A DNA stretch of 64,000 nucleotides from Armatimonadota bacterium (lineage in GTDB: Bacteria; Armatimonadota; HRBIN16). The DNA lies in contig OY781964.1 in NCBI GenBank assembly GCA_963677485.1, positions 4,832,001 to 4,896,000 of the forward strand, in the 5' to 3' direction. Below are positions 12,417 to 24,248 of this stretch, piece by piece (position 1 is the first letter of the stretch; each line of letters begins with the position of its first letter). Position numbers and translations under genes: made by a program. The notes beneath the pieces were generated by a model, which had not been told where the DNA came from, did no database searches, and saw only the letters and a program-made list of their open reading frames with translations.

Positions 12417-14342
12417 TCATCCGGTGACGGATTCCTGCTCTGATTTCGCTTGTGCCAACCTGTTGGCTACAGTCGGAAATTGAGCAAGGTCGGTGTGGGG
12501 CAAGAACATAGCCCCCAAATAGCTATCCATATAACGTGTGTCGCTGCTCAGATCGATATATGTCATACCGGCTGCGAGCTCTGATAGCTTCTGCCGGTGT
12601 TTACGAGAAAGCAATGCGATGTAGGCACCAGTCAGCGATGAGTTGCCGATATATTTGAACGTGTCGTAGGGAAGGTCAGGCAGCAACCCGATCAAAATCG
12701 CATCGTCGATCTCAATATACCGTCCAAATCCTCCCGCTATGTAGACGCAGGAAAGACTATCCCATCCGATACCCACGCTGGAGATCAACAAAGAGCACGC
12801 CGCATAGATGGCGGCCTTCGTGCGCAGCAGATTGGCGATATCCGGTTCAGTAATGACTAAATCCTGCCCATTGACCGTGTTGGTGCCAAACTCTATGATG
12901 TAACCAGCAATATCGGAATCCGTGCTCCAGCGTCCTGTCGACATCTCTGTGTTGAAGCGGCCAGCCTGGTCGATGACCCCACGCAGCAGCATCTCACCAA
13001 GCAGCGAGATGAGCCCCGATCCACAAATGCCGCTCGGTTTGCCACCGCCCACCACATCGTACTGAAGCTCCGAGCCGTCACTACCGATTGTTACATATTC
13101 GATGGCCCCTTCCATGGCCCGCATACCGCACTTGATGCCTGAGCCCTCAAATGCCGGACCCACGGAACAAGCGCAGGTGACCATCCAACTGGCGTTACCC
13201 AGCACGATTTCGCCATTAGTGCCGATGTCCAAGAACATGAATACATCTTCACTGTTGATGTAGATATCGGTGCAGAGAAGTCCCGATGTGATATCACCGC
13301 CCACATAACTCCCGACGCCCGGGGAGAATTCCACACCAGCCGCAGGATTGATTGATAAACCAACATCGTGTGCCGTGAGCGATGGTATCGAGTTCACAGT
13401 CGGAACGTAAGGTGTCTCCCGTATATGACGAGGCGGTAGAGCCAGCAACAGGTGCATCATCGTGGTATTCCCCGCAATGAAAGCCGCATTGATGCTATCA
13501 GTTGGGATGTTGACACTGGCGGCCATTTCCACAATGAGCGTACTGATCGTGTTGACGATCATATCGCGCAGTTCCGCCAGCCGTTCAGGGCTGCGGGCAT
13601 AGTCGATGCGGCTGATGATGTCGGCACCGCGGCTGATCTGCGCATTGTATGATGATCGGTTGGCCATCACAGTACCATCATGCAGGTTGACAAGTTGAAC
13701 CGCCACAGTGGTCGTACCTACATCAACCGCTAACCCGATGGATACGCCGGTTTGATGCCCGGGATGCACCTCCAAGACACGGCCCGTACCATTGAATTCC
13801 TGAACATCGACGGTAATACGTCCATCATCGCAGCGAAGAGTCTCGGCTAATTTCTGTAGTACACCGGCTCCTGTGGTCAGTGAGACCGAGCCATATGCAC
13901 TCGTCCATTCCCTGACCACCCTTTGCCAGTCAGAATAATGCTCTTCGATAGATGCAGGAGGCACAATGATTGTCTGCGAGCTATATAACGGCGTCAACGC
14001 ATTGGGGTCAGGCAAATAGTCGTCATTGACCAGAAAGTGACTATCGCCCACCACCTGCATTGCCGTTTGGCGCTTTTGAAGAAGCTTAACCGTTAAGTCA
14101 CCCACCACTTTTGTGCGGCAGGCGAGTACCAGCTTTTTATCAGTCTGAACTGAGCCTGCTGTGATGTCATCAGAACCGACGTTTCCTTGGATCACTTCCA
14201 CCAGACAGCGTCCGCAGGTGCCCTTACCTCCGCATGGAAGGTGCAGCTCCTCGATACCGCCTTTGATAGCGGCATCATGGATCAGCGATCCTGGCGCCAC
14301 TTCCACTACAACATCAGACGGCAAGAAACGGACACTTGGCAT
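12417..14342 (-). CDS. acsV: ASKHA-family reductive activator of corrinoid proteins (RACo/AcsV) with N-terminal 2Fe-2S domain
   Basis: CGGKGTCGRC and LAC 2Fe-2S motifs; AVDVGTTT, GADIISRI, FLDIGTNGE, GPAFEG, GICGSG and IAGGFG. Confidence 0.9.
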   Translation of the reverse strand: MPSVRFLPSDVVVEVAPGSLIHDAAIKGGIEELHLPCGGKGTCGRCLVEVIQGNVGSDDITAGSVQTDKKLVLACRTKVVGDLTVKLLQKRQTAMQVVGDSHFLVNDDYLPDPNALTPLYSSQTIIVPPASIEEHYSDWQRVVREWTSAYGSVSLTTGAGVLQKLAETLRCDDGRITVDVQEFNGTGRVLEVHPGHQTGVSIGLAVDVGTTTVAVQLVNLHDGTVMANRSSYNAQISRGADIISRIDYARSPERLAELRDMIVNTISTLIVEMAASVNIPTDSINAAFIAGNTTMMHLLLALPPRHIRETPYVPTVNSIPSLTAHDVGLSINPAAGVEFSPGVGSYVGGDITSGLLCTDIYINSEDVFMFLDIGTNGEIVLGNASWMVTCACSVGPAFEGSGIKCGMRAMEGAIEYVTIGSDGSELQYDVVGGGKPSGICGSGLISLLGEMLLRGVIDQAGRFNTEMSTGRWSTDSDIAGYIIEFGTNTVNGQDLVITEPDIANLLRTKAAIYAACSLLISSVGIGWDSLSCVYIAGGFGRYIEIDDAILIGLLPDLPYDTFKYIGNSSLTGAYIALLSRKHRQKLSELAAGMTYIDLSSDTRYMDSYLGAMFLPHTDLAQFPTVANRLAQAKSEQESVTG

Positions 14343-14449: not shown

Positions 14450-15793
14450 TTACCCCGTCGCGAAGACCTTCATGAACGAGCCGATGTCAGACGCCTCTTG
14501 TGGGCCAACGACCACTTCCCAGCCCGGCAGGCAGTCTTCGAGCTCACCACTGATCTGTGATACATAGCCAGGAATGACCAGCTTCCTGGTTTTGACTTGG
14601 TCAGCCAACCCAGATGACTTAATGAAGGTGGCGATCTTTTCGCCAGAGAACTTCCCAGCCGCCCAAGCGGTGAGCACGCTCATACCTTCGCACTCTACGA
14701 CCGCCAGATGGGCCGGCACTCCCGAGTTCTCTATCTCTCCTGAGACCATGAAGTAGGTCAGGGAGAAGTTCGTGGTGACCATCACAGGCGAGTTTTCGTC
14801 GGCTTCACCGATTGGATACACTTTGGGTTCCACTTGAATCGGCTTCTGCGGGTCTGTGAAGATGTTCTGGCGAAGCATCATCAATGGCAGTAGTGCTTCA
14901 TAGGCCATCGTATCGATCACCATGATCGAAGCATACTTACACATCAATGTAGACGCATCCGCAACCATTGATGGGATATCCTGACCCGTGATGAAGTTCA
15001 GAATTGGGAACCCCAACGGTTCGAACGGCACTTTCAATGCAGCCTTTCGGATGATGGTGTTGTTCTGCATTATAGCGGCCGGATTGCTTCCAGGGATGTC
15101 CAAGACGATATCCAGCACACCCAATGCCAGCAGCTTCTTGGTCAAACCGGCCAGTTCATCAAGATTGGCAGCTTTGGCCACGACAGGAGCTTTGTATTTC
15201 AACGCAAGTGCCGCCACTGCGTCTACATTCTCCATGGTGGCCGCGTGAATCAATGGCCGCTGGCCTTCGATCGCAGCAAGAGCTGCCTCCAGGGCAGCCA
15301 CATTGTCACTGCGTAGAATGACACCGCAGCCAGTACCGCCAGATACCGCCTTCACGGCAGCCACGAATGGCTCTACCGCACCCGTCACGTTGTCCACAAG
15401 AGCGAGGTCAAGCCGAAGTTGCTCACCTACCCTCTCTAGGCAGTATTCGCGCACTTCCGCTGTCTTATGAGCCAGATCGGAACCCGACTGGTCATCCGAG
15501 AACGAGATGCAGATGGCGGTCGGATGCACGAATGTCTTTTCATGCCGGAACATCACCGTTTCGTTGCCTACGGCCGTTTCACGCTCCGCAGGGCCGATTT
15601 TCACCAGCCGGATGGGCGGCTTACTGGCCGCCCCGATCTTGGTAATCGCCTCTTCAGATGCATACGGGCAGGCTGCCAGCTCCGCATTTTTTGAAGCCAG
15701 CTTCATAGCGAAGGCCATGCAGGTAGGTACGCCGCACTCACCGCAGTTGGTCTTCGGTAGAAGCTTAAAGATATCCAGTCCAGATAATGCCAT
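14450..15793 (-). CDS. acsC: Corrinoid iron-sulfur protein large subunit
   Basis: LPKTNCGECGVPTCMAFA...CP, FRHEKTF, NIFTDPQKP, TTNFSLTY and SVLTAWAAGKF motifs. Confidence 0.95.
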   Translation of the reverse strand: MALSGLDIFKLLPKTNCGECGVPTCMAFAMKLASKNAELAACPYASEEAITKIGAASKPPIRLVKIGPAERETAVGNETVMFRHEKTFVHPTAICISFSDDQSGSDLAHKTAEVREYCLERVGEQLRLDLALVDNVTGAVEPFVAAVKAVSGGTGCGVILRSDNVAALEAALAAIEGQRPLIHAATMENVDAVAALALKYKAPVVAKAANLDELAGLTKKLLALGVLDIVLDIPGSNPAAIMQNNTIIRKAALKVPFEPLGFPILNFITGQDIPSMVADASTLMCKYASIMVIDTMAYEALLPLMMLRQNIFTDPQKPIQVEPKVYPIGEADENSPVMVTTNFSLTYFMVSGEIENSGVPAHLAVVECEGMSVLTAWAAGKFSGEKIATFIKSSGLADQVKTRKLVIPGYVSQISGELEDCLPGWEVVVGPQEASDIGSFMKVFATG

Positions 15794-15805
15794 GATTTAG
15801 CTCCT

Positions 15806-18800
15806 TTAGCCCGCGACCCGGGTCATCTCAGCGATCTTGCGTCCAACAGTCTGTGCGGCTGATGGATGATACATGACCAGCATGTCAGCACCAGCATTCA
15901 ACAGGCTCATTGCGGTGGCTATCTCCAGTAATGCACCACGGTCTTGTTCTGGCCCCCATAGAGGGAACGAACTCATAGGTGCTTTGCTTTCCTTAGTTTT
16001 CGCCACTTCGTAGCCTGGTGTCGCCAGAATGGGCATGGCCAGCATGGTGTCGCCTGTGAAGGCCGAAGCGCGGATACGCTCCATGACAGAGTAGGTGTAT
16101 TCCAACCCATATCCAAGCGCACCTGTCAGAGAGTCGATGACGATCTTCTCAGGGGCGAGTCCCATGTTGGTGCAGAGAATGTTGAGCTGCTTGGCCATAT
16201 TGACATCAATCGGTGTCTGAGTGACCACACAATGATCATAGGCCATTGCCGCTGCGGCGATGGTCTTGTAGTTGTCCGTCTCCACCCAGTTCAGCAACAG
16301 GTTTTCGCCCGCATACTTGCTGGCGACTTCTTTCATCACTGCGTTGCACTTTTCGTAGTGGCTTGGGCCGGTCACGATGATCGGCACACCCACTGCCTTC
16401 AGAATACTGCCCACGAACTCAGCGCAAGCTTCAGGAGCCTTGTCACCGTGATCGGGATGGGCGGCATCTAAACGCACACTGATGACCGCAGCGCCCAGCT
16501 TGTCAACACAGTGTTTGGCCATAGCTGCCGGGTCGTCCAACAGTGCTCCGTAGGCGGTGCGCAGACTCTCAGGATAGTTCTTGGGTAGTTTATCAAACAC
16601 TTCCATCGCGATGACGGGTGTCTGACCGATGCTTCCTTCAAAATGTCGGAAGGGCAGCACCGATGCGCCACCAAGAACCACTGAAGAGGTTCGTTTGCCA
16701 CTTCCACCCAAAGTCACCAAGCGGACAGAGACTGATGAACTCTCCGGAGGTATGGAGAAGGTCGTAGGAACCAGGATTGAGGCCGATTCGACTACCCGCG
16801 GTGCGGTCTCCACCTTGACTGGCTCTGCAATAACCTCAACGGCTGGAGCTGCAGGGGCAGTAACTGGAGCCGCAACACTGACCGCCTGCGCGGGGGCAGG
16901 CATGGGGCCGAAAGCTCCGCTGTACATCAGCAGCATGTTGGCACCGGCGGTCAGCAGGTTCAATGCGGTCGATGCCTGTAAGGCCGCCATCTGTTGTTCC
17001 ATGGTTGATTCGGCAGTGGCTACGGGCATGCCCTGCGCTCGCATCTTGTCCAGCACCTGCATCACATAACCAAGACCATCATTCGGCATGGCTGTGACGG
17101 CTGGTGCGGTCGGAGCACTGGCTGCGACAACAGCGACAGGGGCGACAACCTCAGCGACAGGAACCGGAGCTGGTGCCGCTTCTGCAGGCTTCGCATCGAC
17201 TACCGGAGAAGCTTCCACCTTTGGAGCAGGTGCTGCAGCCGGAGCTGGCGTCTCCACGATAAGACCTCGAGCCGCATCGGCTTCTGCCGCCTCAGGCGAA
17301 GCTTGCGTGATGTCCCACATGGTCAGTGCAGGGTGTCCAACCTTCTCCATGTAAGCGGAAATCGCCGCGGTATCCGTGCCCGCGGCGGTCTCATCAGCGA
17401 TCATATCAATGTAGTTTTCGATACCGATTTGCTCACCGATGTGGTTTAGTTCTTCGCGGAGTGTCTCTTTGAGCTCCTTGGGCATCCATACGATACGCTT
17501 ATGACCACCTTCAGAATAGATGAACTTCCGGCTGGAGATATAAGCCTTGCCAACCCCGATGAAACCAGGGGTCTGCTGGCCACCGCCGGTCACACCGGCG
17601 AGCGTAGAGAACTTCATGCCCATCGGTGTTTCGCCAGGATACTCGCGGTTGACAATCGCCACACCGTTGCATTCAGGCAGCATAGCCACGATGGCTTCGA
17701 AACAACCGCAACTGGTCATGGGGTCCTTCAGCATTGAATATGCGTTGAAGGAGCTGATGGTCTGCTTGGAGTTCACATAAACATAGTCGTTGATGTTCTT
17801 CCACTGACCGCGGATGGGGTCGATACACTCACCCTTGACGAGTGGCTGGTTGGGTCCAGTGGGGTCAATTTCAAAGGCGGCCTTGCCATCTAGCCAGTTA
17901 TAGGCACCACATAGGCCCAGTCGTTCGGGAGTGATCACACACACGTGGTTAGGCGCGAAGCTCTGGCAGAGCAGGCACGAGTAGAAGGTATCTACACTCT
18001 CGTCGGTCAGCGATTCGACGCGCAGGTTACGCTCGCGATAGACGCGGCGTGCTTCAGCCAGGCGAGGCTCTACATCATCTTTGCCGGTATACAGGGTGAC
18101 TTGCACCTTGTCGACAATGGCTGGATACTCGCTGAGCAGTTTGGCCCGTACGATTTCGCCCAGGTGCTTGATTTTGAAGCCCTTGGCCTGAGCTCCCTTG
18201 CTGATGCGTACCCAGATGATATCACGCTGGCCCATATGCCAGATGCCTTCGCCGCCGTTGATCAGGTGGTGGATTTGGCGCTCCAAAATCGGCTCAAAGT
18301 CCGACTGCATCTTGCGGCCGGCAACCTCGACCCAGATAGCCAGGGGAAGGGCTGTGCCCTCTGCGACATCGTCTATCTCAGGTCCGACTACGACTATCTT
18401 GCCGTCTTCGACCTCAGATATTTCGCGTGTGGCAACATACTCAAAGGCATGGGTCTTGTTACCGCCGAATTCCACATAGGTTTGCTCTTTGCGGATTCGT
18501 TCGCCTTCAAATGCCGGGCCATATGAAACAGGGATCGGCACTTTGGTGATTTTGATCTTGCAGCCACGGACCTCAAGGGCCTTCTCGACAATCTTGTCTA
18601 GAGGCACATTGGAGACCACGTGCTCATAAGTGCAGATACCCGTGGGCAGGATTTCCGGAATGTCCGTGTCCGCGATGGTTGGGAAGCCGTAGGAGATGGC
18701 CCCCGCAGCCGCTGCATACTTCCCTTCGTCTACCTCGCCAAGTGCGATGACAAATGCGAAAATACGGTTCTTGTTGTATTTCAAGTTTCGCTCGTAGTCA

Positions 18801-19486
18801 CCTGGCTTCACTCCACCAAAAGACAGAGCGGCTCTGTTCGCGAAGCCTAATGCATAGATGGCGGCTGAGATGTCTCTGCCGAACGGAACCAGTCGAGTAT
18901 CCCAGCCCAGCTCTACACCAGCCTCTTCAAGCTGCTCAGAGAAGGTGACACCGTTGGTCTCACCGGCCATGAACACATACAGGTTCTTCTCCTGCAGTTC
19001 ACGGGCGATTTTGACAGCCGTCTCCTTGTCAGGAGCGGCACCCACCACGGCGGCGAAACCTGGTGCAGAGCCGTCCACAAACTCTATACCGCGCTCGCGG
19101 ATGATCACATCACCCGCAGCGCCCAGCCAGATACCATCCACAGGATTGGGCCCGTCCAGATACTTGCAGGCCTCGATCAGCTCAAAAGCGAACAGTGTGG
19201 CCATGCCTCCGTCGAGTGTGGCACCCAGATAAGGCAGCCAGACGTGCTCACCGGGGATGGGCATCAACAGGCTGCGGCATTCATCCAGCACTTCCTGCAT
19301 GTCGCCCAGTTTTTCTACACGAATACCCAAAAGTGAGTTAATCACAGGCAAGGCGTAGGTCGTATCTGGAAAACCGACCTCGCAGTCCACACCGTGAAGT
19401 TCGATGGCCTTAGCCACCATGGCCTCGGTATCCGCGACGATCTTGTGAGCTCCCTTGATCGCAGATGAGGCGATTATCTTACTCAT
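15806..19486 (-). CDS. acsB: Acetyl-CoA synthase (AcsB) fused via an Ala/Pro-rich linker to the CoFeSP small subunit (AcsD)
   Basis: A-cluster ligands CLLCQSFAPNHVC...LCGAY and TSCGCFE; the AcsB part ends at HPALTM (~17320); the AcsD part has PIDVNMAKQLN, LGYGLEYTYSVMERIR and AGADMLVMYHP; one uninterrupted 1226-aa ORF. Confidence 0.93.
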   Translation of the reverse strand: MSKIIASSAIKGAHKIVADTEAMVAKAIELHGVDCEVGFPDTTYALPVINSLLGIRVEKLGDMQEVLDECRSLLMPIPGEHVWLPYLGATLDGGMATLFAFELIEACKYLDGPNPVDGIWLGAAGDVIIRERGIEFVDGSAPGFAAVVGAAPDKETAVKIARELQEKNLYVFMAGETNGVTFSEQLEEAGVELGWDTRLVPFGRDISAAIYALGFANRAALSFGGVKPGDYERNLKYNKNRIFAFVIALGEVDEGKYAAAAGAISYGFPTIADTDIPEILPTGICTYEHVVSNVPLDKIVEKALEVRGCKIKITKVPIPVSYGPAFEGERIRKEQTYVEFGGNKTHAFEYVATREISEVEDGKIVVVGPEIDDVAEGTALPLAIWVEVAGRKMQSDFEPILERQIHHLINGGEGIWHMGQRDIIWVRISKGAQAKGFKIKHLGEIVRAKLLSEYPAIVDKVQVTLYTGKDDVEPRLAEARRVYRERNLRVESLTDESVDTFYSCLLCQSFAPNHVCVITPERLGLCGAYNWLDGKAAFEIDPTGPNQPLVKGECIDPIRGQWKNINDYVYVNSKQTISSFNAYSMLKDPMTSCGCFEAIVAMLPECNGVAIVNREYPGETPMGMKFSTLAGVTGGGQQTPGFIGVGKAYISSRKFIYSEGGHKRIVWMPKELKETLREELNHIGEQIGIENYIDMIADETAAGTDTAAISAYMEKVGHPALTMWDITQASPEAAEADAARGLIVETPAPAAAPAPKVEASPVVDAKPAEAAPAPVPVAEVVAPVAVVAASAPTAPAVTAMPNDGLGYVMQVLDKMRAQGMPVATAESTMEQQMAALQASTALNLLTAGANMLLMYSGAFGPMPAPAQAVSVAAPVTAPAAPAVEVIAEPVKVETAPRVVESASILVPTTFSIPPESSSVSVRLVTLGGSGKRTSSVVLGGASVLPFRHFEGSIGQTPVIAMEVFDKLPKNYPESLRTAYGALLDDPAAMAKHCVDKLGAAVISVRLDAAHPDHGDKAPEACAEFVGSILKAVGVPIIVTGPSHYEKCNAVMKEVASKYAGENLLLNWVETDNYKTIAAAAMAYDHCVVTQTPIDVNMAKQLNILCTNMGLAPEKIVIDSLTGALGYGLEYTYSVMERIRASAFTGDTMLAMPILATPGYEVAKTKESKAPMSSFPLWGPEQDRGALLEIATAMSLLNAGADMLVMYHPSAAQTVGRKIAEMTRVAG

Positions 19487-21441
19487 ACCAGTTCCCTCCG
19501 CTCCTTCATATCATAAAGTTTGCGTTCCTTCTTGGCGTTAATCCCAAGGGCGTCGCGCTTACCCTCTATGTGATCAATGATCTTCTGTGCGGCGATGTCG
19601 GGATCTGGCTCCCACTCGAATTTACCGCCGGTGATGTCTGCCATATCTTCGCACAGCAGCTTGGTGACGTTGGCGCTGCCCTCTACATATAGCGGATGGC
19701 CAAGAACGACGTACAGCCCGCTGGCTACGAAGTAACTACCAATCGCAACGGCCTTCTCACTCATCCACTCAGGTGCTGCACCCGCGACTGGCAGGTCGGA
19801 AAGGTCTTCGCCTAAACCACCCTCAAGCAGCACATTGGTGGCAGCCATCAGGATGCGGCTATTGTCAACGCATGAGCCCATATGCAGCACGGGAGGTATA
19901 CCCACCGCCTCGCAGACTTCACGCAGTGAATCGCCCGCATACTGCAGCGCAGCTTCAGGAACCAGAAGTCCCTCTTTGGCGCAGGCGATGGCGGAACAAC
20001 CGGTCTGAAGCACCAGGATGTTCGCCTTGATGAGTGCCTTGGTCATGCGGATATGCGAATCATCTGAGCGCACCTTGGGGTTGCTGCAGCCCACAATGCC
20101 GACCACTCCACGGATACGCCCGTCAATGATCGCGTCATTGAGGGGACGGAAGGTGCTTCGGAAGCGCCCGCCAAGCATCTGGAAGATCGTCTCATTGGAA
20201 AAGCCTGCTACCAGGTCCATCGATTCGGTTGGGATATTGACCCGGGTGGCATCTCGGTTCTCGTAGTTGTCGATGGCCATACGGATCAGCCGGCAGGCGT
20301 GCGCATAGCCTTCTTGAACATCAAACGTGATCTGTTCCGCGTTGAAGGTGTGGGCTATCTCCGATGTGCTGATCAGTTTCGTATGGAAGCACTTAGTGAC
20401 TTCAGGAAGTGAAGGCATGACGCACTGAACATCCACGATCATCATCTCAACGGCACCGGTGACGATGGCCAGCTCTTGCTGCAGGAAGTTACCAGCTATC
20501 GGCAAACCATGGCGCATCAGAACTTCGTTCGCCGTGCAGCAGATACCGGAGATGTTGATGCCGGCGGCACCCTTGCTTTTGGCGTAAGCCAGCAGCTCTT
20601 CATCGATGGACGCGGTGGCGAGCATCTCAGACAGCGTCGGCTCGTGGCCATGCACGATGATATTTACTTTATCATCGGACAGAACACCAAGGTTCACGCG
20701 GCTGCGAATGGGCTTAGGTGTGCCAAACAAGATATCTGACACAGCAGTGGCGATCATCGAGCCCACCCAGCCATCGGCCAGGCTGCACTTCAGGCCACCC
20801 ATGATGAGGTGGTGATAGTCATGATCAACACCCATGTGCGTTCGGTGCATCAGCTCTACCACGGCGGAGTCCACACCATTAGGTGCAATCTCCAGCTTCT
20901 CCCAAAGAGCTTGACGTTTCTCTGGAGCCATCTTAAGAATTTCGTTGGGCTTTTCAGACCAAGCAAACTGAGCCATGAAGAAGTCCGCCAGTTCGCCGGC
21001 GATCTGAAGGTCATCGCGGCCTTCTATCTCCATCTCAAAAAACTGAGCGATCTCGTGCAGTCTGCGGGAATCGGTGATCTTATAGGAGCCACCTTTACCA
21101 GCCACCACACTCTTGAGTGTTCGGACCAGCATACGGCCATGGTCAGAGTGTGCTGCAGTTCCTGCGGCGATTTCACGCAGCAAGTTCCGCGCCGTGATCG
21201 TATCAGCATCGGCTCCGCAAATTCCCTTTGGGGCTTTCGCGGTGATCCGGCATGGTCCCATATGGCACAACCGGCAGCAAACCCCTGTCATGCCGAACTT
21301 GCACTGTGGCTGCTGTGTTTTATATCGATCCCAAACAGTCGATATGCCTCCAACCTGTGCGATGTCGATCATGCGGTTAGTTGCTGAGTCGTGTGAATAT
21401 AAGTTATTGCCTTTTGGTTCGTTCACTTCGGGCATCTTCAA
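19483..21441 (-). CDS. acsA: Anaerobic Ni,Fe carbon monoxide dehydrogenase catalytic subunit
   Basis: PQCKFG..CCRLCHMGPC, HGHEP, GICCTANE, DVQC, VGCSNP, TGCSA, MGSCVDNSR and WMSEKA motifs (all cluster ligands present). Confidence 0.95.
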   Translation of the reverse strand: MKMPEVNEPKGNNLYSHDSATNRMIDIAQVGGISTVWDRYKTQQPQCKFGMTGVCCRLCHMGPCRITAKAPKGICGADADTITARNLLREIAAGTAAHSDHGRMLVRTLKSVVAGKGGSYKITDSRRLHEIAQFFEMEIEGRDDLQIAGELADFFMAQFAWSEKPNEILKMAPEKRQALWEKLEIAPNGVDSAVVELMHRTHMGVDHDYHHLIMGGLKCSLADGWVGSMIATAVSDILFGTPKPIRSRVNLGVLSDDKVNIIVHGHEPTLSEMLATASIDEELLAYAKSKGAAGINISGICCTANEVLMRHGLPIAGNFLQQELAIVTGAVEMMIVDVQCVMPSLPEVTKCFHTKLISTSEIAHTFNAEQITFDVQEGYAHACRLIRMAIDNYENRDATRVNIPTESMDLVAGFSNETIFQMLGGRFRSTFRPLNDAIIDGRIRGVVGIVGCSNPKVRSDDSHIRMTKALIKANILVLQTGCSAIACAKEGLLVPEAALQYAGDSLREVCEAVGIPPVLHMGSCVDNSRILMAATNVLLEGGLGEDLSDLPVAGAAPEWMSEKAVAIGSYFVASGLYVVLGHPLYVEGSANVTKLLCEDMADITGGKFEWEPDPDIAAQKIIDHIEGKRDALGINAKKERKLYDMKERRELV

Positions 21442-21584: not shown

Positions 21585-22343
21585 TTATTCGGTCAAGTAT
21601 TGGGAAAGCATTGCTCCGACGGCTTGCCTGGCAGGGGATTCCAAGGGGATATCCACCACTGCCATTCCACCGGCATCCTGGTCGGCAACATTTTGATCAA
21701 CGGGTATGATTGCGATGATGGGCAGGCCAGTCAGCTCTGCCTCTTTTTGCACCATGGGAGGTAGTATACCGTCCGGAACACGGTTGATGATCAGTCCCCT
21801 GTGCTTCACTGGTGTGCCCATCTCGTCGGTCAGTTTTGCGATTGTTCCCGCAGTACGCACCCCACGGACGCTGCAGTCTGTGACGATGCATAACAGGTCA
21901 ACGGTCAGTAGCGTGCGTCGCGCCAGGTGCTCTAAACCGGCTTCGTTGTCTACCACCACATGGCGGTAGTTCTCAGACAGTTTACGTATGACATCACGTA
22001 GCACGTTGTTCGCGAAGCAGTAACAGCCGGGGCCTTCAGGGCGGCCCATGACGATCAAGTCGTAACCGTCCTGCTCTACCATGGCTTCCTGAACGCGTAC
22101 ATCCATGAACTCTTGTTTGGATATACCCGAAAGCTCTTTTGCTTTATGCAGAGCATCTTCGCGGATTCCGCCCACTGTGGCATCGTATGAGACACCGAGA
22201 GCTTCGTGCAGGTTCGCATTGGAATCAGCATCGACTGCCAGCACCGGGGTTTCTCCACGTGCGACCAGCCATTTGATGATCAGGGATGAGAGGGTCGTTT
22301 TACCGACCCCTCCCTTCCCGGTGATGGCGATGGTTAGTTTCAT
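21585..22343 (-). CDS. cooC: CooC/AcsF nickel-insertion ATPase
   Basis: GKGGVGKTT, VDAD, GPGCYC and DNEAGLEH motifs. Confidence 0.92.
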   Translation of the reverse strand: MKLTIAITGKGGVGKTTLSSLIIKWLVARGETPVLAVDADSNANLHEALGVSYDATVGGIREDALHKAKELSGISKQEFMDVRVQEAMVEQDGYDLIVMGRPEGPGCYCFANNVLRDVIRKLSENYRHVVVDNEAGLEHLARRTLLTVDLLCIVTDCSVRGVRTAGTIAKLTDEMGTPVKHRGLIINRVPDGILPPMVQKEAELTGLPIIAIIPVDQNVADQDAGGMAVVDIPLESPARQAVGAMLSQYLTE

Positions 22344-22358
22344 TCAGCCTTCCGTATT

Positions 22359-23411
22359 CTACGCAAGCCGTGCCTGGAGTGCAGCACTGGTCTTACCGAG
22401 AAGATCGAATACCAGCTCTGCATCAGCTACAGGCAAGGAGCCAGTGCCGCAAGACGGGGTGATCATTGCCTGATTCAGGATCAGCTCACGGGATATGCCC
22501 GCTGCTTTTGCTAGGTTATCTACACCTTCGTCAAACTTCGCCACGAGGCTCTCAACTGTCTGGGCTTGTATCTTGGCACTGTTGGTAGGAACCACGCCCC
22601 ACGCCAACACCTTACCGGCTTCCAGGTGGACCTTTACAGCTTGTGGGTATAACGCGATGGTGTCAGCAAACTCAAATGCATCGAAGTTCACCACATCCAC
22701 ACCGGCATCCATGAGGATAGACCATTCCGTGTTTCCGCAGCAGTGAACACCGGCAAGCGCACCCTCGGCGTGAACGGCATCCACTACCTCGGCCAGTTTT
22801 TCCACTACGTCTTCACGGCTCACGCTCACATATGTGGATGATCCGAATGCAGATAGAATGGGCTCATCAATGAAGCAGATGATCTTTTCGGCAAACTGTT
22901 TGAACTTGCGGATCTGCCAGCGGCACTTCATGGCGAGCGCTTTGACCACCACATCGATGAACTCAGCGTTGTAATAGATCGCTCGTTTGTTCTCATCGAC
23001 GATGGTCAGGCCGAAGCTGATGGGCCCTGTGGTCTGCACTTTCATAATCGGGCGCACTCCACCCTCAGCCTGCAGAGCAGCTTCCATGGCGAAAATGCCT
23101 TTGGAAAATTCCGGGGTAATCTGGAAATAGTCGTAGTTCTCCATGAGATAGTTCTCATAGAAATTCGCCAGATCCATCGAGTAGTCTCCCGTCGTATCAA
23201 AATACATGCGTCCTTTGACGCGGTCAATGACCACGCGGGGCATTCCTTCGGAATACTGCATCTCCATCTGTTCGTTCATGCCATTTGCGGGCAACTGTGG
23301 CCAGATAGGAGCGACAGGAATGCTATTCAATATCACTTTCACAGCATCAGCAGCATTGGCATGCGGCAGACTTCCTATTGCTGTGGCAATACATTTGGGT
23401 GAGAAGCTCAT
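22359..23411 (-). CDS. mesB: Core (folate-independent, methylcorrinoid-dependent) methionine synthase, MesB-like
   Basis: ATAIGSLPH, WPQLP, EQMEMQYSEGMP, TGPISF, FIDEP, GVHCCG and ITPSCG motifs; single-barrel length ~350 aa; GGAGGA RBS. Confidence 0.75.
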   Translation of the reverse strand: MSFSPKCIATAIGSLPHANAADAVKVILNSIPVAPIWPQLPANGMNEQMEMQYSEGMPRVVIDRVKGRMYFDTTGDYSMDLANFYENYLMENYDYFQITPEFSKGIFAMEAALQAEGGVRPIMKVQTTGPISFGLTIVDENKRAIYYNAEFIDVVVKALAMKCRWQIRKFKQFAEKIICFIDEPILSAFGSSTYVSVSREDVVEKLAEVVDAVHAEGALAGVHCCGNTEWSILMDAGVDVVNFDAFEFADTIALYPQAVKVHLEAGKVLAWGVVPTNSAKIQAQTVESLVAKFDEGVDNLAKAAGISRELILNQAMITPSCGTGSLPVADAELVFDLLGKTSAALQARLA

Positions 23412-23438
23412 GATGTATCCTCCGTCGGTATTCAATGT

Positions 23439-24248
23439 TTATAATTTCAGGGCGTCTGGCCGCTCATAGTTGCTTATGATAGCCTGTTTGATATTCCGAA
23501 ATGGTTCTAGTAGTTCGGGTTCGTGCAGGTCGGCTAGTGCTAACGCAGTCCTGTCAGCCATACCGATGCGGGCATCATATGGGATGACACCTAGAACAGC
23601 ACCTTCACCAAACTCATTCACGACCCACGCGCGGTCCGACACGGGGTCAGTCGCTTTGTTGATCACTATGGCAAATTGTTTAATTCCGATACCGGCAGCC
23701 AGATCACGCACGCGAAGGGCTGTCTCTACACTACGCTTCCCGGGCTCTACAACCGCCAGCATAAGGTCCACTCCCATGGCGGTACCTCGCCCAAGGTGCT
23801 CTATGCCAGCCTCCATGTCGAGAATGACCACCTCATTGCGTTTTAACACAATCTCTCGGACGAGTGACTTCAGCAGCACGCTCTCAGGGCAGTTGCATCC
23901 TCCACCAGCACTAGGAATGCCACCAAGCACGAGTAAGTCAACACCTGCGTGATGCACGGCGTACTGCTCAGCTATTCCTGACACATCGGGGTTGATAGAG
24001 AATATCTGTCCAAACTGATTGACTTTAGCACCTGTGCGCTCTTCAACCAGTTGGCGTTCCTGAGAAATGGTGTGGATCCGCTGTAGAAGATCAGAGGGCA
24101 TACCGAGTGCCGATGCCAGATTTGCATCCGGGTCAGCATCGATAGCCAGAACCTTGCGCCCGTCTACTGCGAACAGTCTTGCGAGGGTGCCTGACAGCGT
24201 CGATTTCCCGACCCCGCCTTTTCCGGATATGGCCAGTTTAAGAGACAT
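23439..24248 (-). CDS. cooC: Second CooC-type nickel-insertion ATPase
   Basis: SGKGGVGKST, IDADPDANL, GGGCNC and LDMEAGIEHLGRGT motifs. Confidence 0.92.
   Translation of the reverse strand: MSLKLAISGKGGVGKSTLSGTLARLFAVDGRKVLAIDADPDANLASALGMPSDLLQRIHTISQERQLVEERTGAKVNQFGQIFSINPDVSGIAEQYAVHHAGVDLLVLGGIPSAGGGCNCPESVLLKSLVREIVLKRNEVVILDMEAGIEHLGRGTAMGVDLMLAVVEPGKRSVETALRVRDLAAGIGIKQFAIVINKATDPVSDRAWVVNEFGEGAVLGVIPYDARIGMADRTALALADLHEPELLEPFRNIKQAIISNYERPDALKL

Follow-up and report, generated by a model that had tools for sequence, protein, structure and literature searches.

A fused acsB~acsD gene in an Armatimonadota bacterium and its relatives: acetyl-CoA synthase likely tethered to the small subunit of CoFeSP

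An Armatimonadota bacterium (GenBank assembly GCA_963677485.1) encodes acetyl-CoA synthase (ACS, AcsB) and the small subunit of CoFeSP (AcsD) in one gene. The window analysed here is a stretch of 64,000 nucleotides of contig OY781964.1 (positions 4,832,001 to 4,896,000 of the forward strand), and all positions below refer to it. The fused acsB~acsD open reading frame (ORF; 15806..19486, minus strand, stop codon included) had an ATG start and zero internal stops, and encoded 1226 amino acids with a calculated mass of 131.0 kDa. Taken as a whole, the most likely explanation is a genuine and stable AcsB-AcsD fusion in a fused-type operon, with a linker module derived from AcsD in the lineage of the window (class A), holding CoFeSP on ACS as a tether.

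Gene structure and domain content

The AcsB part (residues 1-726; 17309..19486, minus strand) comprised the A1, A2 and A3 domains, as judged from Pfam, NCBIfam, PDB alignments and cysteine motifs. The AcsD part (residues 908-1226; 15809..16765, minus strand) was a complete TIM-barrel CoFeSP small subunit according to Pfam, NCBIfam and structure superposition. Pfam matches were CODH_A_N (22-110), CdhC (318-472), ACS_CODH_B_C (483-724) and CdhD (930-1159). The CODH-binding A1 domain was present, with PF18537 at residues 22-110 and alignments to PDB ACS chains starting at residue 10. The ACS alpha/beta equivalog model NF040764 (CODH_ACS_al_bet) covered residues 10-726 with profile positions 1-704 of 705 (1066 bits, cut-off 800), and the delta subunit model NF003376 covered residues 913-1222 with profile positions 6-312 of 313 (358.7 bits, cut-off 280). 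The AcsD part scored below the cut-off of the acetogen AcsD model WLP_AcsD (NF040759; 256.9 versus 430 bits).

An AF2 model of residues 725-1226 superposed on residues 1-322 of the Moorella thermoacetica CFeSP small subunit (4djd_D) with a Z score of 43.1 and an rmsd of 2.1, aligning 315 of 323 residues (model residues 183-502, protein residues 907-1226). Both halves are regarded as complete because the NCBIfam and PDB matches span the full AcsB and the superposition spans the full AcsD. The first-pass annotation, which had described a single 1226-aa ORF with both complete proteins, is thus confirmed. The A-cluster cysteine motifs were C504, C507, C516 and C526, and C593-G-C595; these columns were nearly invariant (at least 90% conserved) among 70 class A sequences. 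We take the ligand assignment (CxxC...C...C and CGC) to be that of the M. thermoacetica structure.

The complete 5.22-Mb genome contained two CdhD-family matches, AcsC and the fusion, so the fused ORF was its sole AcsD. No in-frame start preceded by a Shine-Dalgarno sequence was found ahead of the AcsD domain. AGGAG-type sites preceded the fusion start, acsA and acsC, and a GGAGG-type site preceded the methyltransferase-like gene.

The linker and its two-helix module

The linker between the complete AcsB and AcsD had been placed at about 16750-17315 and described as Ala/Pro/Val-rich. The position held, with bounds of 16766..17308 (minus strand; residues 727-907, 181 aa), as did the overall composition (54% Ala+Pro+Val), although this was unevenly spread. 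Arm 1 (residues 745-800; 17087..17254, minus strand) and arm 2 (residues 861-905; 16772..16906, minus strand) consisted of 77% and 64% Ala+Pro+Val, respectively, and were predicted to be disordered, with pLDDT below 50 in the Ala/Pro-rich stretches. The 60-residue segment between them (residues 801-860; 16907..17086, minus strand) had only 25% Ala+Pro+Val and was recognized, by profile comparison and predicted helices, as a conserved two-helix module. Its helices (helix 1: residues 804-818, 17033-17077; helix 2: residues 829-855, 16922-17002; both minus strand) were predicted both in context and alone with pLDDT of about 80. Modelled alone, the module reached a pTM of 0.30, i.e., no confident tertiary arrangement. 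Pfam searches with the linkers of four fusions gave no match at E ≤ 0.01, and no counterpart of the 181-aa linker was found among solved structures.

The module had 12 invariant positions across 71 class A sequences and was as conserved as the catalytic domains. Given such strong selection, docking on some partner or self-association is its probable role. In hhalign it matched the AcsD domain (Prob 95.6, E 1.1e-8, score 55.0), whereas 100 column shuffles reached a maximum score of 21.5 and the reversed module scored 27.7. By this profile comparison, the class A module arose as a partial, since degenerated copy of the AcsD C-terminal helices alpha6 and alpha7-beta8. AcsC was ruled out as its source (score 15.2, E 0.17). 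In another group of fusions (class B), the module position was occupied by a long amphipathic helix of another kind; this helix was ruled out as an AcsD duplicate (E 0.21-0.61), and hhalign detected no relationship between it and the class A module (E 0.094).

The module is not essential to the fusion, since fusions without it exist: two genomes of the same phylum and one database protein had module-less linkers of ~95-110 aa, and a Syntrophales locus had one of ~79-87 aa. The arms varied freely in length and sequence between fusions. A module profile search of 1.84 billion representatives returned 22 matches at E ≤ 1e-3. The seven inspected were five pieces of fusion ORFs, either fragmentary or frameshifted, one AcsD C-terminus and one spurious 2879-aa repeat protein; full-length fusions were absent among the representatives, so that family size is not derivable from these matches.

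The fused-type operon

The fused gene lay in an operon on the minus strand with the order cooC, MetE-like gene, cooC, acsA, acsB~D, acsC, RACo and homocysteine-methyltransferase-like gene. Upstream of the fusion were a second cooC-like ATPase gene (23439..24248), the MetE-like gene ("methionine synthase family", 22359..23435), the gene for a cooC-like Ni-insertion ATPase (21585..22343) and acsA (Ni-CODH, Prismane family; 19483..21441), whose stop codon overlapped the fusion start codon (ATGA). Downstream followed acsC (14450..15793), starting 12 nt past the fusion stop, the gene for RACo, the reductive activator of CoFeSP (12417..14342), and a homocysteine S-methyltransferase-like gene (PF02574; 11501..12385). 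These genes were assigned with Pfam, supported by locus comparison for the last one; the MetE-like gene (358 aa) had no Pfam match and was assigned by NCBIfam and locus comparison. The acsC product contained the FeS and CdhD domains of the CoFeSP large subunit (PF04060 and PF03599, full profile covered), which means that a large-subunit partner gene for AcsD is present.

Among the loci compared, the MetE-like and PF02574 genes were seen only in fused-type operons, and a pterin-binding methyltransferase gene was absent from the operon described here. This is a distinct fused-type CODH/ACS operon defined by the acsB~acsD fusion.

Distribution and origin of the fusion

Species-representative genomes from more than 12 phyla contained 105 distinct fused ORFs. 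The listed database clusters all combined ACS and CdhD domains (120/120), and 104 of the 120 had all four domains. Uninterrupted fused ORFs were found at 36 of 78 loci in a first scan and at 70 of 80 loci in a second one (68 by a stricter motif count); both scans were seeded from fused queries and each covered the best 80 of about 590 relatives. In the same phylum, 60 of 301 genomes carried AcsD, 17 of these 60 with an uninterrupted fused ORF. Short AcsD-like proteins of ~310-325 aa with 72% identity also occurred in the protein collection, where they are known from protein sequence alone.

In an unrooted AcsB tree, the split between fused and unfused sequences had a support of 99/98 (UFBoot/SH-aLRT) and appeared in 98% of 200 bootstrap trees. 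In an unrooted AcsD tree (SH-aLRT 98), one change between fused and unfused sufficed, and the AcsD part of the fusion belonged to a separate AcsD group. A single origin of the fusion with later transfer across phyla would fit these data. In the unfused relatives examined, acsD was located upstream of acsA (order acsD-acsA-acsB) or downstream of RACo-cooC.

The first-pass annotation had allowed that the architecture might already be common and described. Common it is, but full-text searches of the searchable literature found no description of an AcsB-AcsD fusion, and the "fused" or "fusion" passages in the accessible parts of related papers did not concern one. The fused gene is common, yet apparently undescribed before.

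Evidence for a genuine coding sequence

A single ORF could also result from an assembly or sequencing error, or from acsB and acsD having been neighbouring genes that recently lost the stop codon separating them. Nothing was found in favour of this, apart from one relative, a Hydrogenedentota locus, that carried a frameshift in the linker; two loci from long-read MAGs were interrupted as well. Logan contigs from four DNA-type runs of two studies, which may include the source data, matched 15700-19600 without a single difference or gap, and hence showed neither a stop nor a frameshift in the linker. Compared with a genome of the same genus (G156), changes at the third, first and second codon positions numbered 23/5/1, 20/3/2 and 24/4/5 for arm 1, the module and arm 2, respectively, with synonymous to nonsynonymous counts of 21:7, 18:4 and 20:8 in the same order. 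All four linker indel positions involved whole codons. Because this codon-position pattern is that of coding sequence in every linker part, the linker is evidently translated. There were 105 distinct fused ORFs, fused sequences formed one well-supported group in the trees, and the unfused relatives examined kept acsD away from the 3' end of acsB. An artefact therefore has next to no probability and is refuted as far as sequence data reach, in line with the earlier view, based on the length and coherence of the linker, that no stop codon had been lost.

Comparison with known systems

The solved bacterial CODH/ACS systems with separate CoFeSP (M. thermoacetica, Carboxydothermus hydrogenoformans, Clostridium autoethanogenum; PDB 1oao, 1ru3, 6ytt, 9fzy, 4djd, 2h9a) share with the fusion the AcsB domains A1-A3 (aligned over residues 10-726 with E values of about 1e-219 to 1e-202) and AcsD (aligned over 920-1221; E 9e-80 for 4djd_D), with AcsA, AcsC, RACo and CooC encoded alongside. 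In these systems, stand-alone ACS chains end at the equivalent of residue ~726 (fusion residues ~724-727) and AcsD is a separate chain of ~310-323 aa, whereas here both are one chain. The operon described here also differs in having MetE-like and homocysteine-methyltransferase-like genes and no pterin-binding methyltransferase gene.

The accessible text on archaeal ACDS (CdhABCDE) describes a CdhD N-terminal coiled-coil scaffold with disordered tethers (Zimmer et al. 2026, 10.64898/2026.07.07.736967) and makes no mention of an AcsB-AcsD fusion. According to this text, disordered regions keep ACS and CoFeSP together. The archaeal CdhD barrel, like the AcsD barrel here, is preceded on its N-terminal side by a helix and then an Ala/Pro-rich stretch. 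In contrast to archaeal two-domain CdhC, which is without A1, the fusion keeps the A1 domain, and its link would be covalent. An hhalign comparison with the N-terminal coiled-coil region of 11 Methanosarcinales CdhD detected no homology to the class A module (E 0.59), and the class B helix gave an E of 0.35 against the same region. The fusion scored 248.5 bits with the model of long Methanosarcina-type CdhD (NF003375), below the cut-off of 488; the alignment, from residue 808, was not taken as evidence of homology because the hhalign comparisons were negative. Of the convergence on archaeal ACDS proposed at first pass, only an analogy is left.

In 2-oxo acid dehydrogenase E2 chains, Ala/Pro-rich flexible swinging-arm linkers join a carrier domain to the catalytic core. 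The linkers of the fusion are likewise Ala/Pro-rich, extended and flexible, a likeness of description that implies no sequence relationship. They differ in tethering a whole TIM-barrel subunit and in having an extra conserved helical module.

Proposed role

The most likely role of the fusion is that of a covalent tether holding the docking subunit of CoFeSP on ACS. The accessible text of a cryo-EM preprint reports that CoFeSP docks on ACS through its small subunit, at domains A1 and A3 (10.1101/2024.08.05.606187), and the tether fits because this docking part is the one that is fused. The fusion would join the ACS-docking subunit to ACS at the C-terminal end of domain A3, and AcsC would bind AcsD non-covalently, giving a working unit of (AcsA)2(AcsB~D)2(AcsC)2. 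The permanent CODH-ACS-CoFeSP complex proposed at first pass is a hypothesis at the protein level. CoFeSP would in this unit stay locally concentrated and in 1:1 stoichiometry, and about 100 disordered linker residues could let it swing between the methyl donor, RACo and the A-cluster.

Long disordered Ala/Pro-rich stretches are typical protease-accessible regions and can be cleaved. The single chain might then be cut in the linker so that AcsB and AcsD act separately, with equal synthesis as the sole gain; the low pLDDT and the freely varying arms are compatible with this. A near-invariant module is, however, hard to explain inside a segment meant for removal, the arms are under in-frame purifying selection, and translational coupling (the ATGA overlap and the 12-nt gap) already links the neighbouring genes, which makes a fusion unneeded for equal synthesis. 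We consider cleavage quite improbable.

A somewhat better, though still unlikely, candidate is a module that self-associates or docks on a subunit and thereby brings several CODH/ACS-CoFeSP units together in a larger assembly, as a bacterial counterpart of ACDS. The catalytic-level conservation of the module speaks for it, as do the different helix at the same site in class B and the archaeal-like position of the module; in the accessible text of 10.64898/2026.07.07.736967, the oligomerisation helix is also N-terminal to the barrel with an Ala/Pro-rich stretch after it. A hydrophobic face of helices alpha6 and alpha7 would become exposed if they lay outside the TIM barrel. Against it stand the undetected homology to the archaeal region, the low pTM of the module alone and the existence of module-less fusions. 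Speculatively, and with comparably low probability, the fused-type operon may encode a self-organising acetyl-CoA machine with the class A module and the class B helix as hub, an independent answer to the ACDS scaffold, in which the co-inherited MetE-like and homocysteine-methyltransferase-like genes may link the CoFeSP methyl group directly to thiol methylation (methionine synthesis). The tether remains our preferred reading.

Implications

Structural biology has found the encounter of ACS and CoFeSP, a transient step in the Wood-Ljungdahl pathway, hard to trap. A natural, covalently tethered ACS-CoFeSP would be a ready object for cryo-EM and kinetics, and the fusion is a template for engineering gas-fermenting strains. 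The origin of the module is a small but clear example of a linker made out of part of an adjacent domain. The fused gene is currently annotated just as "subunit alpha/beta", and pathway-completeness tools that expect a separate acsD may therefore score such genomes as lacking it. The fusion marks an unnamed operon type that extends from soil Acidobacteriota and Armatimonadota through to termite-gut Treponema.

Fused gene and operon context

A single minus-strand open reading frame at 15806..19486 (1226 aa, ATG start, no internal stops) joined acetyl-CoA synthase (ACS, AcsB) to the CoFeSP small subunit (AcsD). Pfam placed CODH_A_N at residues 22–110, CdhC at 318–472, ACS_CODH_B_C at 483–724 and CdhD at 930–1159. 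The NCBIfam ACS equivalog NF040764 matched residues 10–726 (1066 bits, cut-off 800) and the delta subunit model NF003376 residues 913–1222 (358.7 bits, cut-off 280). The C-terminus of every solved stand-alone ACS chain corresponded to fusion residue ~724–727. An AlphaFold2 model of residues 725–1226 superposed on residues 1–322 of the structural reference for the AcsD part, 4djd_D, the complete CFeSP small subunit of M. thermoacetica (Z 43.1, rmsd 2.1, 315 aligned). Both halves are therefore complete, as the first-pass annotation had claimed for this 1226-aa frame. The AcsB part contained the A-cluster cysteine motifs, and the calculated mass was 131.0 kDa. The linker between the ACS end and the AcsD start comprised residues 727–907 (nt 16766–17308, minus strand), in agreement with its earlier placement.

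The minus-strand operon consisted of cooC, a 358-aa gene, cooC, acsA, the fusion, acsC (CoFeSP large subunit), RACo (reductive activator of CoFeSP) and a homocysteine-methyltransferase-like gene (PF02574). The acsA stop and the fusion ATG overlapped as ATGA, and acsC started 12 nt past the fusion stop. Shine-Dalgarno sites were of the AGGAG type at the fusion start, acsA and acsC, and of the GGAGG type at the methyltransferase-like gene; no clear site was found ahead of any in-frame ATG, GTG or TTG preceding the AcsD domain. The complete 5.22-Mb genome contained two CdhD-family matches only, AcsC and the fusion, and no free-standing acsD.

The 358-aa gene (22359-23435, minus strand), located between the two cooC genes, had no Pfam match at E ≤ 0.01 and a weak NCBIfam match to methionine synthase PRK00957 (30.8 bits). 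Its ESM-Atlas neighbours (score 0.97) bore the name 'methionine synthase family', with PF01717 assigned to 26% of one cluster. The homocysteine S-methyltransferase-like gene (PF02574; 11501-12385, minus strand) occupied the operon end, a position in which one might expect a methyltransferase of the acsE type. These are hints that this gene and the MetE-like 358-aa gene may link the CoFeSP methyl group to thiol methylation. The only two PF00809 (pterin-binding) matches in the genome (G000:C1:2465347-2466066 and 1177048-1177749, in frames of 287 and 873 aa) were both distant from the acs operon, so that no enzyme stood out as the methyl donor to CoFeSP here.

Integrity of the reading frame

An artefactual fusion was refuted by assembled reads, by the codon-position pattern and by the wide occurrence of the architecture. 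Across 15700–19600, Logan contigs from four runs (two studies) showed neither differences nor gaps (0 of each), and so revealed no stop or frameshift across the linker; two of them spanned the region in one piece. Since these contigs may include the source data of the window, their support is weak taken alone. Comparison with the same-genus genome G156, whose protein (P0002) was 91% identical, supports a real fusion more strongly. Substitutions at codon positions 3/1/2 numbered 23/5/1 in the first flanking arm of the linker, 20/3/2 in the central module and 24/4/5 in the second arm; the corresponding synonymous:nonsynonymous counts were 21:7, 18:4 and 20:8. Indels occurred at four linker positions, all as whole codons. 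By this codon pattern, the linker is evidently translated in the fusion frame and under purifying selection.

In one Hydrogenedentota MAG (L020, 8001-11992), a fused-type operon, i.e., one of the acsB~acsD type, contained 840-aa and 551-aa ORFs in different frames that overlapped inside the linker. The cause of this frameshift is an assembly error or, alternatively, a natural re-split.

Linker architecture and origin of the module

The linker was the sole poorly conserved part across all fusions, yet it was structured. The earlier description of it as Ala/Pro/Val-rich held for the arms at residues 745–800 (77% Ala, Pro or Val) and 861–905 (64%), both predicted to be disordered (pLDDT below 50), and failed for the two-helix module between them (801–860), with helices predicted at residues 804–818 and 829–855 (pLDDT 79–89 in context). 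Folded alone, the module gave helices at pLDDT ~80 with a pTM of 0.30.

Most of the sorted full-length sequences (112 of 139) had class A linkers, which carry the two-helix module and include those of the window, Armatimonadota and Acidobacteriota; their length was 162–318 aa (median ~206, first 102 sorted). The module had 12 invariant positions in 71 class A sequences, and its conservation equalled that of the catalytic domains. Class B linkers (23/139; 124–154 aa in the first 18 sorted) contained a long amphipathic helix, different from the class A module, and occurred in Verrucomicrobiota, Lentisphaerota, Planctomycetota, Treponema, Oscillospiraceae and others. A few linkers were other variants or helix-free (L041, P0109, G075 and G049, the last two from the window's phylum). 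The fused ORFs of G075 (L230, 1133 aa) and G049 (L232, 1129 aa) had linkers of ~95–110 aa without a helical module. The 309-aa protein P0169 (NCBI 'subunit delta') matched the AcsD part of L230, where the annotation may have placed the AcsD start at a Met internal to the open frame. By eye, the L019 linker (Chitinispirillaceae) resembled the class A module in a diverged form, and the L021 linker (Hydrogenedentota) a class B helix of much greater length.

Helix 2 of the module resembled the penultimate helix and last strand of AcsD (BLASTP E 2e-7, 17/36 identical). At the profile level, both module helices matched alpha6 and then alpha7-beta8 of AcsD, in order (hhalign Prob 95.6, E 1.1e-8, score 55.0, 58 columns), ~27–35 intervening AcsD residues being absent from the module. 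Control scores were at most 21.5 for 100 column-order shuffles and 27.7 for the reversed module. By the ordered match and the controls, the module is thus a partial, degenerate duplicate of the C-terminal region of AcsD, and it is now under strong constraint of its own. An origin from AcsC was rejected, scoring only 15.2 against a 64-sequence AcsC alignment. Among the hits inspected from a module-profile search of 1.84 billion representatives, only pieces of fusion ORFs were found. A match in 19 stretches of P0242 (2879 aa; E 3e-26) was unrelated by inspection; P0242 is a tandem-repeat surface-type protein, and summed weak repeat matches call for caution.

Distribution and origin of the fusion

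In the domain-architecture search of the protein collection, ACS and CdhD domains occurred together within one protein in 120/120 clusters among the matches listed, and all four domains in 104 of these, with lengths of ~1150–1340 aa. Two scans of genomes, each limited to the best 80 of ~590 relatives and seeded from fused queries, gave a fused ORF of ≥1000 aa without interruption in 36/78 best loci (first scan, species representatives) and a fused ORF in 70/80 (second scan, started from a Treponema fusion; 68 with a stricter motif, seven loci running off contigs). Further loci from the window's phylum were fused in 16/16 cases, two duplicating earlier loci. AcsD was present in 60 of 301 sampled genomes of this phylum, and in 17 of the 60, the window's own included, it lay within an open frame of 1129–1351 aa. 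The phylum is probably Armatimonadota, since G300, another of its genomes, has a linker identical to that of P0006, an Armatimonadota protein by its NCBI name. By record title, fused loci belonged to Armatimonadota, Acidobacteriota, Verrucomicrobiota, Lentisphaerota, Kiritimatiellia, Planctomycetota, Spirochaetota (termite-gut Treponema), Bacillota (Oscillospiraceae), Synergistaceae, Bacteroidota, Fibrobacterota, Hydrogenedentota, KSB1, Aminicenantes and others, almost throughout as MAGs. The first-pass annotation had raised the possibility that the architecture is already common and described. It is common, with 105 distinct fused ORFs from both best-80 scans and the same-phylum loci; no description was found in the openly searchable full-text literature. 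Source annotations named the fused proteins 'acetyl-CoA synthase' or 'subunit alpha/beta'.

In the AcsB tree (53 rows, i.e., 74 minus 21 near-duplicate and contig-end-truncated rows), all 33 fused-type rows lay on one side of a branch with 99/98 support (UFBoot/SH-aLRT), a split recovered in 98% of 200 bootstrap trees, at 98 by FastTree with all 74 rows and at 97 in a quick IQ-TREE search. The AcsD tree was congruent (98 SH-aLRT, one change). Both trees are unrooted and drawn from the same query-seeded samples; they fit a single origin of the fusion. Phyla were intermixed inside the fused group, and transfer is therefore implied.

The operon layout of the window was common to fused-type loci. 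By counts from the locus table, the 358-aa gene was present in 30/42 fused-type and 0/36 unfused-type loci, and the PF02574 gene in 24/42 and 0/36, respectively. Unfused gene orders (L013-L018, L045, L055, L056, L059, L060, L065, L071, L075) were acsD-acsA-acsB-acsC in Actinomycetota and Deltaproteobacteria-type MAGs and acsA-acsB-acsC-RACo-cooC-acsD in Planctomycetota. In these unfused relatives, acsD never adjoined the 3' end of acsB, and simple stop-codon loss therefore does not explain the fusion. The earlier argument against a lost stop codon is borne out by this placement, by the codon pattern and by the wide spread.

Archaeal analogy and possible function

In the archaeal ACDS complex, which has a coiled-coil scaffold at the CdhD N-terminus, disordered termini tether CODH and ACS, according to a preprint (10.64898/2026.07.07.736967). 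The layout of the fusion (helix, Ala/Pro stretch, barrel) resembles archaeal CdhD in position only. Because of this layout, 11 Methanosarcinales CdhD genes were fetched and their profiles compared; neither the class A module (E 0.59) nor the class B helix (E 0.35) gave a signal against them. In contrast to archaeal ACDS (CdhABCDE), the fusion protein kept the bacterial A1 domain; it does not belong to the archaeal type. The proposed convergence on ACDS is thus reduced to an analogy.

As judged from sequence, the fusion was shown to be stable and translated, carrying the genome's only AcsD with acsC directly after it. According to a preprint (10.1101/2024.08.05.606187), the CODH/ACS-CoFeSP structure from C. 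autoethanogenum has the small subunit docked onto ACS domains A1 and A3. Fusing the docking subunit AcsD to the A3 end would keep CoFeSP at 1:1 and at high local concentration, and ~100 disordered linker residues would leave it free to reach the methyl donor and RACo. This tether reading is plausible; self-association, docking or mimicry of the AcsD surface are candidate roles for the module. The fusion is a variant of a known system, widespread yet undescribed in the literature searched, and the internal origin of its linker module was unexpected.
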